Assembly: GCF_003334815.1 (NCBI RefSeq)
Contig: NZ_QOWO01000138.1
Reading direction: 5' to 3' (one strand)
DNA: 253 bases
From: Escherichia coli
GTDB lineage: Bacteria; Pseudomonadota; Gammaproteobacteria; Enterobacterales; Enterobacteriaceae
Shown: positions 1 through 253 of the stretch, one piece after another
How the letters are laid out: every line of letters begins with the position of its first letter
Position numbering within the stretch: the first letter of the stretch is position 1
Notes under the pieces: generated by a model
Databases searched by the model: none
Told to the model about the DNA's origin: nothing
Seen by the model: the letters and a program-made list of their open reading frames with translations, nothing else
Program-made: the position numbers and the translations under genes

Positions 1-2
1 GC

Positions 3-251
3 GAGAGAGCGTTGCCGCAGGCAACGACCCGAAGGGCGAAGCGCGCAGCGCTGAGTAATCCTTCCCCCACCACCATCACTTTCAAAAGCCCCGGAATTCT
101 CAAACGAATCCGCAATCAAATATTCTGCCCAAGCGGGGAAGGATGAGAAGCTTCGACCAAGGTTCGACTTGAGCGCCAGCGAGAGAGCGTTGCCGCAGGC
201 AACGACCCGAAGGGCGAAGCGCGCAGCGCTGAGTAATCCTTCCCCCACCAC
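3..251 (-). CDS. Hypothetical stop-free reading frame on the minus strand (fragment, open at both window ends); no recognisable product
   Basis: Minus-strand codons occupying plus triplets 249-251 down to 3-5 contain no stop over 83 codons. Translation: [83 protein letters not shown]. Plus-strand tca occurs only at 76, 82, 100 and 116 (all out of this frame); no tta or cta anywhere. Caveats: the 178-bp period is not a multiple of 3, so the two repeat copies are read in different frames; the second half is Arg-rich like off-frame GC-rich sequence; third-position GC is about 70% in the first 40 codons but about 53% in the rest; no similarity search possible. An ATG on the minus strand at plus 76-74 (MVVGEGLL...) is a possible start in a different frame. 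Confidence 0.15.
10..26. other. Perfect hairpin: 7-bp stem CGTTGCC / GGCAACG with 3-nt loop GCA
   Basis: Seen directly: 10-16 cgttgcc is the exact reverse complement of 20-26 ggcaacg, loop 17-19 gca. All seven pairs are Watson-Crick. No U/T tract follows on either strand, so it is not an intrinsic terminator. Function unknown. Confidence 0.45.
40..52. other. Hairpin: 5-bp stem AGCGC / GCGCT with 3-nt loop GCA
   Basis: Seen directly: 40-44 agcgc pairs with 48-52 gcgct, loop 45-47 gca. It lies in a GC-palindromic tract (gcgcgc, agcgct), so alternative registers exist. Function unknown. Confidence 0.35.
58..144. repeat. 10-bp perfect inverted repeat pair: ATCCTTCCCC (58-67) and GGGGAAGGAT (135-144), bracketing the AT-richer core
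   Basis: Seen directly: the reverse complement of 58-67 equals 135-144 exactly. Extension fails on both sides (57 a vs 145 g; 68 c vs 134 c). The left arm is inside the 75-bp repeat, so 236-245 is also complementary to 135-144. Biological meaning not established. Confidence 0.6.
188..204. other. Second copy of the 7-bp stem / GCA-loop hairpin (inside repeat copy 2)
   Basis: Identical sequence to 10-26, shifted by 178 nt. Confidence 0.45.
218..230. other. Second copy of the 5-bp stem / GCA-loop hairpin (inside repeat copy 2)
   Basis: Identical sequence to 40-52, shifted by 178 nt. Confidence 0.35.
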
Positions 252-253
252 CA

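Follow-up and report, generated by a model that had tools for sequence, protein, structure and literature searches.

The 253-nt window (the whole stretch of DNA analysed here) is best explained, with very little room for doubt, as the distal end of a 178-bp tandem array in the trailer of the Escherichia coli tyrT-tyrV operon, the prototype of the tRNA-linked repeats (TLRs), and there is no evidence that contradicts this identification. The repeat itself is already known: it was published in 1978, is represented in Rfam and is automatically annotated as RtT sRNA in thousands of genomes. The window is neither a circle nor a satellite nor a new element.

Genomic Context and Identification

The entire window is identical (253/253, 100%) to complement(1286710..1286962) of the E. 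coli K-12 MG1655 chromosome (NC_000913.3), where it is part of the 3' trailer that follows the tRNA-Tyr genes of the tyrT-tyrV operon, with purU on one side and narI on the other. In the PGAP-annotated MG1655 locus (hereafter L001, in which the window occupies 4001-4253), the order is purU, tRNA-Tyr, RtT, tRNA-Tyr, three RtT units and the convergent narI. A search of nucleotide databases, one of the checks proposed in the initial annotation of this DNA, was carried out with megablast and returned matches to the window in 4,700 of 5,426 complete E. coli genomes, many of them (K-12 MG1655 included) at 100% identity. In the curated chromosome record, tyrV (NC_000913.3 1287244-1287328) is followed by the 171-nt gene rttR (b4425, 1287066-1287236), which starts 7 nt past tyrV, and by tpr (b1229, 1287087-1287176); both of these curated genes lie in distal unit 1 of the array, whereas the window comprises part of unit 2 and the whole of unit 3.

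Positions 122-253 match the complete model (1-130/130) of the Rfam RtT RNA family (RF00391) with 134.2 bits (E 5e-30) against a gathering score of 45 bits, and scores of 133-137 bits are obtained for all four RtT units of the MG1655 locus; both this score and the position downstream of tRNA-Tyr in the tyrT operon identify the repeat as RtT. Other Rfam families gave just two lncRNA matches in the window, both at chance level (E 4.7). A tRNA gene in the window was considered and rejected: ARAGORN found neither a tRNA nor a tmRNA there, and the tail ending in CCA reproduces 19 nt of a tRNA end.

The TLRs, as described in PMC8144298, comprise 22 elements at 10 K-12 loci, each having 18-19 bp identical to the tRNA or rRNA gene upstream of it, at that gene's 3' end; the tyrT locus is described as a 178-bp unit in about 3.14 repeats. 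The TLR literature cited in that paper includes Egan and Landy (1978), with the 178-bp tyrT repeat as the first description of a TLR, and Rudd (1999). The array containing the window agrees with the tyrT 178-bp repeats and with RtT (rttR, RF00391) in sequence, locus, period, copies and 19-nt tRNA-Tyr end, and differs from them in nothing.

The perfect 75-bp direct repeat that the initial annotation had reported was confirmed by a repeat search and by string comparison (positions 1-75 equal 179-253 at 75/75 bases, with a spacing of 178), and chance, at about 4^-75 per offset, is excluded as the origin of a 75-nt exact match within a 253-nt sequence. The accompanying remark that the repeat ends exactly at the window edges is true of the window but not of the chromosome, where the perfect match between units 2 and 3 runs 2 bases past each edge, to a total of 79 bp (L001 3999-4077 = 4177-4255), and thus the fit of the repeat to the edges is due to the position of the cut. 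With both edges lying 2 nt inside this maximal repeat, a repeat-aware cut would fit. The trinucleotide 'cca' preceding the second copy (176-178), noted earlier as a possible junction microhomology, turned out to be incidental: its 'ca' lies within the perfect repeat, and at position 176 ('c' here) the units differ, having either C or T. The units naturally divide after ...CCACCA (window 75/76 and 253/254) and not at 178/179, with the array abutting the tRNA 3' end. The decisive clue, absent from the initial annotation, is the tRNA-like 3' end ...CCCCCACCACCA that closes both copies.

Of the readings then offered, a longer head-to-tail tandem array is the correct one: flank extension followed by a tandem-repeat search, as had been advised, yielded a period of 178 and 3.1 copies with 95% matches (TRF, L001 3701-4259), and the flanks, which were to be checked for a single-copy arrangement, instead contain further repeat units to the left and unique narI-side sequence to the right. 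The idea of a nucleosome-scale satellite attached to that reading is wrong for a 3-copy array within a bacterial tRNA operon. Similarly, a satellite-like long array (tens or more head-to-tail copies without gene association) was rejected, as the E. coli loci examined carry 0-5 distal copies, always within the tRNA-Tyr operon; in other genera, there are at most 5 pattern matches per locus. A duplication is an apt description in the evolutionary sense but not as a recent one-off event, the array being old, Enterobacterales-wide and polymorphic in copy number.

Organization of the Repeat Units

The three distal units occupy L001 3720-3897, 3898-4075 and 4076-4253 and are identical to one another at 169-170 of 178 positions over their whole length; SNPs that tell the units apart are located at L001 3733-3820 and 3911-3998. 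The window contains the last 75 nt of unit 2 and the complete unit 3, and its right edge is the array-final CCA. The 3' part of unit 2 (positions 1-75, + strand; L001 4001-4075, within the RtT sRNA annotated at 3944-4075) matches RF00391 over model positions 57-130 with 70.8 bits, being 5'-truncated by the window edge. It is closed by a 19-nt copy of the tRNA-Tyr 3' end, AATCCTTCCCCCACCACCA, at positions 57-75 (+ strand; 19/19 columns of alignment A1). The same 19 columns are identical in the tRNA-Tyr gene and in all four RtT units of this alignment, including the second copy at 235-253, so that the units repeat the tRNA-Tyr 3' end (19/19) in the manner defining a TLR.

Unit 3 (76-253, + strand, 178 nt; L001 4076-4253), the last of the array, is identical to units 1 and 2 at 169/178 positions each. 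It opens with the linker between RtT cores (76-134, + strand), which, taken together with the preceding tail (58-134), is C-rich, G-poor and almost unstructured (C 39%, G 9%, MFE -5.4 kcal/mol over 77 nt); the core that follows (135-253) has a folding energy of -47.9 kcal/mol. The full-length RtT family match (122-253, + strand) coincides with the RtT sRNA called by PGAP at L001 4122-4253. By analogy with rttR, which corresponds to a unit minus its first 7 nt, a 171-nt RtT-type RNA of unit 3 is predicted at 83-253 (+ strand). The plan of the unit is, in short, an unstructured C-rich, G-poor linker and then a structured RtT core of ~119 nt ending in the 19-nt tRNA-Tyr copy.

Conserved Structure of the RtT Core

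The fold of the single sequence is unconvincing when taken alone (z = -1.73, with 13/200 shuffles folding equally well), and comparative data were therefore used instead, in the form of an alignment (A2) of 111 distinct units to which an RNAalifold consensus with one added hairpin was applied. In this model, 96.7% of cells are paired and 15 pairs show pair-preserving changes on both sides, a level of covariation that was reached by 0 of 500 shuffles, while slid controls pair in 34-46%. The Rfam consensus applied to the same alignment is 98.7% paired with 7 compensatory pairs, and the disagreement between the two models is confined to non-varying positions.

The core is closed by a 10-bp terminal helix between a 5' arm, GGGGAAGGAT (135-144, + strand), and the 3' arm ATCCTTCCCC (236-245, + strand; 10/10 complementary), which is taken from the tRNA-derived 19-mer and is followed by the single-stranded tail CACCACCA (246-253). 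This helix is nearly invariant (99.4% of cells paired in the 111 homologues), and part of the invariance, as in several other columns, is due to ascertainment, since the aligned sequences are related and were gathered by a fixed 27-nt pattern. Within the core, the hairpin at 168-185 (+ strand; alignment columns 47-53/58-64) displays compensatory changes across species, one of its pairs occurring as UA (70), CG (22) or GC (12) and another as GC (102) or AU (7). The next hairpin, CGUUGC-CGCAG-GCAACG at 188-204 (+ strand), has changes on both sides that retain pairing in 6/6 pairs, with 98.5% of cells paired. The third, AGCGC-GCA-GCGCU at 218-230 (+ strand; columns 99-103/108-112), is outside the Rfam consensus; all 5/5 pairs have changes on both sides, with only 82.9% of cells paired. 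The three internal hairpins of RtT covary, and the structure is conserved.

That the RtT core arose internally from the T arm of tRNA-Tyr (CTTCG[ACC]AAGGTTCGA) was also considered and set aside, as the local alignment score was matched by 62 of 1000 shuffles and is not significant. A short unit in Pseudocitrobacter vendiensis (L079:3209-3320), spaced at 109 nt, has the 5' part of RtT fused at AAGGTTCGA directly to ATCCTTCCCCCACCACCA; it looks as though the T-arm-like motif within RtT had undergone exchange with the true tRNA T arm, and this fusion exactly at the motif keeps the T-arm derivation as a lead.

Copy Number Variation in E. coli

Between 0 and 5 distal units are present at the E. coli loci examined, with one in B-JRPT-4119, two in O157:H7, three in K-12 and five in GmM062, the latter carrying 2 additional units between the tRNA genes. 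At the lower end, strains M10 and UR21/11-869 possess two tRNA-Tyr genes and zero RtT units. In these RtT-less operons (782-1152 of the M10 locus, L105; 601-970 of the UR21/11-869 locus, L106) the tRNA genes are separated by a 33-34-nt spacer and the narI-side flank begins precisely after the tRNA CCA; when tRNA-Tyr and the post-array flank were joined into a synthetic query, strains such as M10 matched it without interruption over 252/252 positions. The exact junction in both strains indicates that the loss was precise and in register and that the units can be dispensed with; RtT units are dispensable in nature. More broadly, blastn, even in distant mode, gave no RtT match in about 690 complete E. 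coli genomes (~13%), and the rttR losses listed in PMC3318445 are consistent with RtT-less E. coli strains.

Two further strains deviate from the usual arrangement. In the laboratory strain E. coli Stbl4 (NZ_CP081009.1 4538885-4539681) the match is in pieces with an 'ISAs1 family transposase' annotated beneath it, which suggests an insertion sequence within or beside the RtT array. The locus of E. coli IH5 (L005, 552-1575) has just a partial RtT beside narI, its last 75 nt matching the window, and where the tRNA-Tyr genes and purU would usually be there is a truncated porin pseudogene, a layout that suggests a rearrangement whose breakpoint fell inside the array.

Occurrence in Other Genera and Concerted Evolution

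A pattern scan of one genome per species retrieved 99 stretches, nearly all from Enterobacterales, in genera including Citrobacter, Enterobacter, Klebsiella, Salmonella, Kosakonia, Pantoea, Serratia and others. Outside E. coli, RtT units are often in tandem, with spacings of 167-180 nt, and of the 129 units whose locus includes an upstream tRNA, 128 have tRNA-Tyr(GTA) as the nearest such gene. For one unit of this set (loci L006-L104) the nearest upstream tRNA is tRNA-Gln, with a tail match of 19/19 as scored by script. RtT-like units were also seen in three records labelled as other than Enterobacterales: L045 (a Cellvibrionaceae MAG), with truly divergent internal hairpins and tail; L064 ('Chryseobacterium sp. 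18061'), typically enterobacterial in look and likely to reflect contamination or mislabelling; and L083 ('Martelella alba').

Across species, 18-19 of the 19 tail positions are identical to the end of the upstream tRNA in 108/129 units. Two intact tail types could be compared with their tRNAs: ACCACCA is paired with ACCACCA in 79/79 cases and GCCACCA with GCCACCA in 18/18, with no discordant pair among the 97. The RtT tail evolves in concert with the tRNA-Tyr 3' end. As the variable tail base is single-stranded and outside the RtT helix, pairing within RtT cannot explain the match, which can be accounted for by gene conversion, by unequal exchange with the tRNA 3' end or by selection for the same processing signal.

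The tRNA-like 3' tail is missing from 24-25 pattern-matching units (the count depends on the extraction window), which continue into unrelated sequence; examples are L017:150, L018:280 and units on the minus strand of L046 and L100. Among those read, the tail-less units of L018, L046 and L100 are the last of their arrays, and from their terminal position in several arrays it appears that array ends are often truncated copies.

Transcription, Processing and Termination

A promoter-like tyrT site (TTTACA, 16-nt spacer, TATGAT; L001 3263-3290) is located upstream, and no intrinsic terminator was found on the + (operon) strand after the array. We propose that each unit recreates a tRNA 3'-maturation site, in which case the normal tRNA 3'-maturation enzymes would cut the operon transcript after each unit, because every unit reproduces the tRNA 3' end. 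Cuts after each CCA tail would release RtT RNAs of ~171 nt resembling the curated rttR, and an endonuclease that cuts immediately 3' of the mature end, with subsequent trimming, would be expected to leave the rttR start 7 nt past the tRNA. For transcription and processing into a discrete RNA of about 171 nt, there are the curated rttR annotation of unit 1 and statements in PMC3318445 and PMC8144298. Processing through the repeat of a tRNA or rRNA end has been proposed likewise for the 5S-linked relatives (PMC8144298). Growth, shrinkage and homogenisation of the array may proceed via unequal homologous recombination, slippage or gene conversion between the units and the tRNA 3' end.

The C-rich linkers are putative Rho loading sites at which transcription would be brought to an end ahead of the convergent narI; the composition of the linker at 58-134 is like that of a Rho-loading site, and from this composition we infer the loading role. 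The operon whose transcription they would stop is terminator-less and strongly expressed. Kupper et al. in 1978 and Rossi et al. in 1981 are said to have placed a Rho-dependent terminator within the tyrT repeats and to have dealt with processing sites; in the open literature, we found no paper describing a Rho-dependent terminator of tyrT. Since rttR is curated for unit 1 only, units 2 and 3 (those of the window) may be largely beyond the terminator and weakly expressed. In one RNA-seq data set (PMC13010647), RtT accounted for a mere 0.0008-0.0009% of effective reads, a figure that multi-mapping may have lowered.

Alternative Explanations

A window that measures 178 + 75 nt, with a repeat touching both edges, has the appearance of a circle of ~178 nt (a viroid-like RNA, a rolling-circle product or an excised DNA circle) whose sequence was output with its ends overlapping, or of a de Bruijn assembler loop artefact, and a mobilome-sequencing preprint (10.1101/2024.07.17.603846) does report raised exonuclease-resistant coverage of the K-12 tyrT-rttR-tpr region after several stresses. 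Its authors leave the cause open and do not ascribe the coverage to circles; excised repeat circles or RNA:DNA hybrids are candidates for that signal. As an account of the window, a circle or artefact has a vanishingly small probability, and in the form given in the initial annotation it is refuted by the presence of the intact 253 nt, at 100% identity, in closed chromosomes, which continue into non-repeat sequence on the right and into further, slightly different units on the left. The copy number is, moreover, integral and in register at one locus, and no ribozyme or viroid family of Rfam matched the window at E up to 10. The likeness to viroid-like circular RNAs or rolling-circle concatemers goes no further than the look of one whole unit with part of another; the tyrT repeat differs from them in being chromosomal and linear, with a unique flank, without a ribozyme and with non-identical units. 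A mobile-element origin was rejected along the same lines: phage matches were absent even in distant mode, and the 21 'plasmid' matches are all to non-mobilizable records, several of them chromosome-sized. Coding as the reason for the repeat, through tpr (a 29-aa protamine-like protein, + strand) or YchS (91 aa, - strand), is somewhat less remote and still very improbable. Both genes are annotated in NC_000913.3, tpr having been proposed by Altman et al. (1981), as cited in PMC11623569, and frame 2 of the minus strand is free of stops throughout the window. However, the 29-aa tpr frame is intact in unit 1 only, with a stop at codon 6 in unit 2 and at codon 10 in unit 3, where MRSFDQGST* (143-172, + strand) ends at a TGA after 9 codons; across 111 homologous units it ends after 5 codons in 80 and is not conserved. 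The period of 178, not being a multiple of 3, also means that successive units are read in different frames. The hypothetical gene ychS (b1228; NC_000913.3 1286709-1286984, minus strand) covers positions 1-253, runs off both window ends and is antisense to units 2 and 3; its ATG is the antisense of the ...CCAT found behind every CCA end, in RtT units and tRNA-Tyr genes alike, and the length of YchS-like ORFs depends on copy number, position and strain, lying anywhere between 36 and 189 aa. YchS has no Pfam or NCBIfam match, the tpr product has no NCBIfam match, PGAP calls neither gene, and ychS looks like a spurious ORF.

The more substantial alternative, which we nevertheless consider unlikely, is that RtT RNAs are trans-acting regulatory sRNAs (e.g., protein or RNA sponges like RrA/RrB/RrF), with the array kept for dosage. 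It draws on the conservation of the RtT structure, with compensatory changes across many genera, on the differential expression of RtT in K. pneumoniae (PMC4147364) and on the in vitro binding of Hfq and CsrA by rRNA-linked TLRs (PMC8144298). Set against these are CsrA-binding prediction scores below 0.01 for 19 tRNA-linked TLRs, the description of TLRs as without known function and the withdrawal of a starvation phenotype once ascribed to RtT and later attributed to a neighbouring gene (all PMC8144298), as well as the low abundance of RtT in the one RNA-seq data set (PMC13010647); the entire absence of units from about 13% of complete E. coli genomes likewise speaks against a function of importance. 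Mention of RtT is gone from the latest version of the CoCoNuT preprint. Like the tyrT units, RrA/RrB/RrF are situated in the 3' trailer of a stable-RNA operon, repeat at their 3' end 18-19 nt of the upstream mature RNA and have been proposed to be processed through that repeat (PMC8144298). Unlike the tyrT units, which are in tandem, behind a tRNA and with a CsrA-binding prediction below 0.01, they are single copies downstream of 5S rRNA, between two terminators, and bind Hfq and CsrA. Another comparison is offered by 3'ETS-leuZ (PMC8144298), likewise an RNA that the tRNA maturation machinery frees from a tRNA precursor; it is, however, a single short spacer with a demonstrated role as an sRNA sponge, whereas RtT, a structured unit of 171 nt, is repeated and no role has been demonstrated for it.

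Discussion

With the window identified as the distal end of the tyrT-tyrV repeat array, the useful outcome of this analysis is a negative one: what could be taken, from the window, for a satellite or a very small circular replicon is a textbook locus of bacteria. We entertain as an outside chance, well short of the regulatory-sRNA reading, that RtT copy number is selected and tunable, as opposed to undergoing neutral turnover, with each unit supplying one Rho-loading site and one tRNA-type 3'-processing site. If this were true, differences between strains in unit number (0 to 5 or more) would translate into differences in tRNA-Tyr output, in read-through into the convergent narGHJI operon or in the degree to which the tRNA-mimic tails of RtT titrate factors that recognise tRNA 3' ends; the co-variation of tail and tRNA would then represent selection for identical processing signals in combination with gene conversion.

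The details added here are the range of 0-5 distal units, the Enterobacterales-wide arrays behind tRNA-Tyr, the three covarying hairpins and the 97/97 match between tail and tRNA, and the by-products also include the precise, in-register loss of the units and linkers with the composition of Rho-loading sites. What remains of interest is the purpose of tRNA-linked repeats, a question now more than 45 years old, which these by-products sharpen rather than answer.
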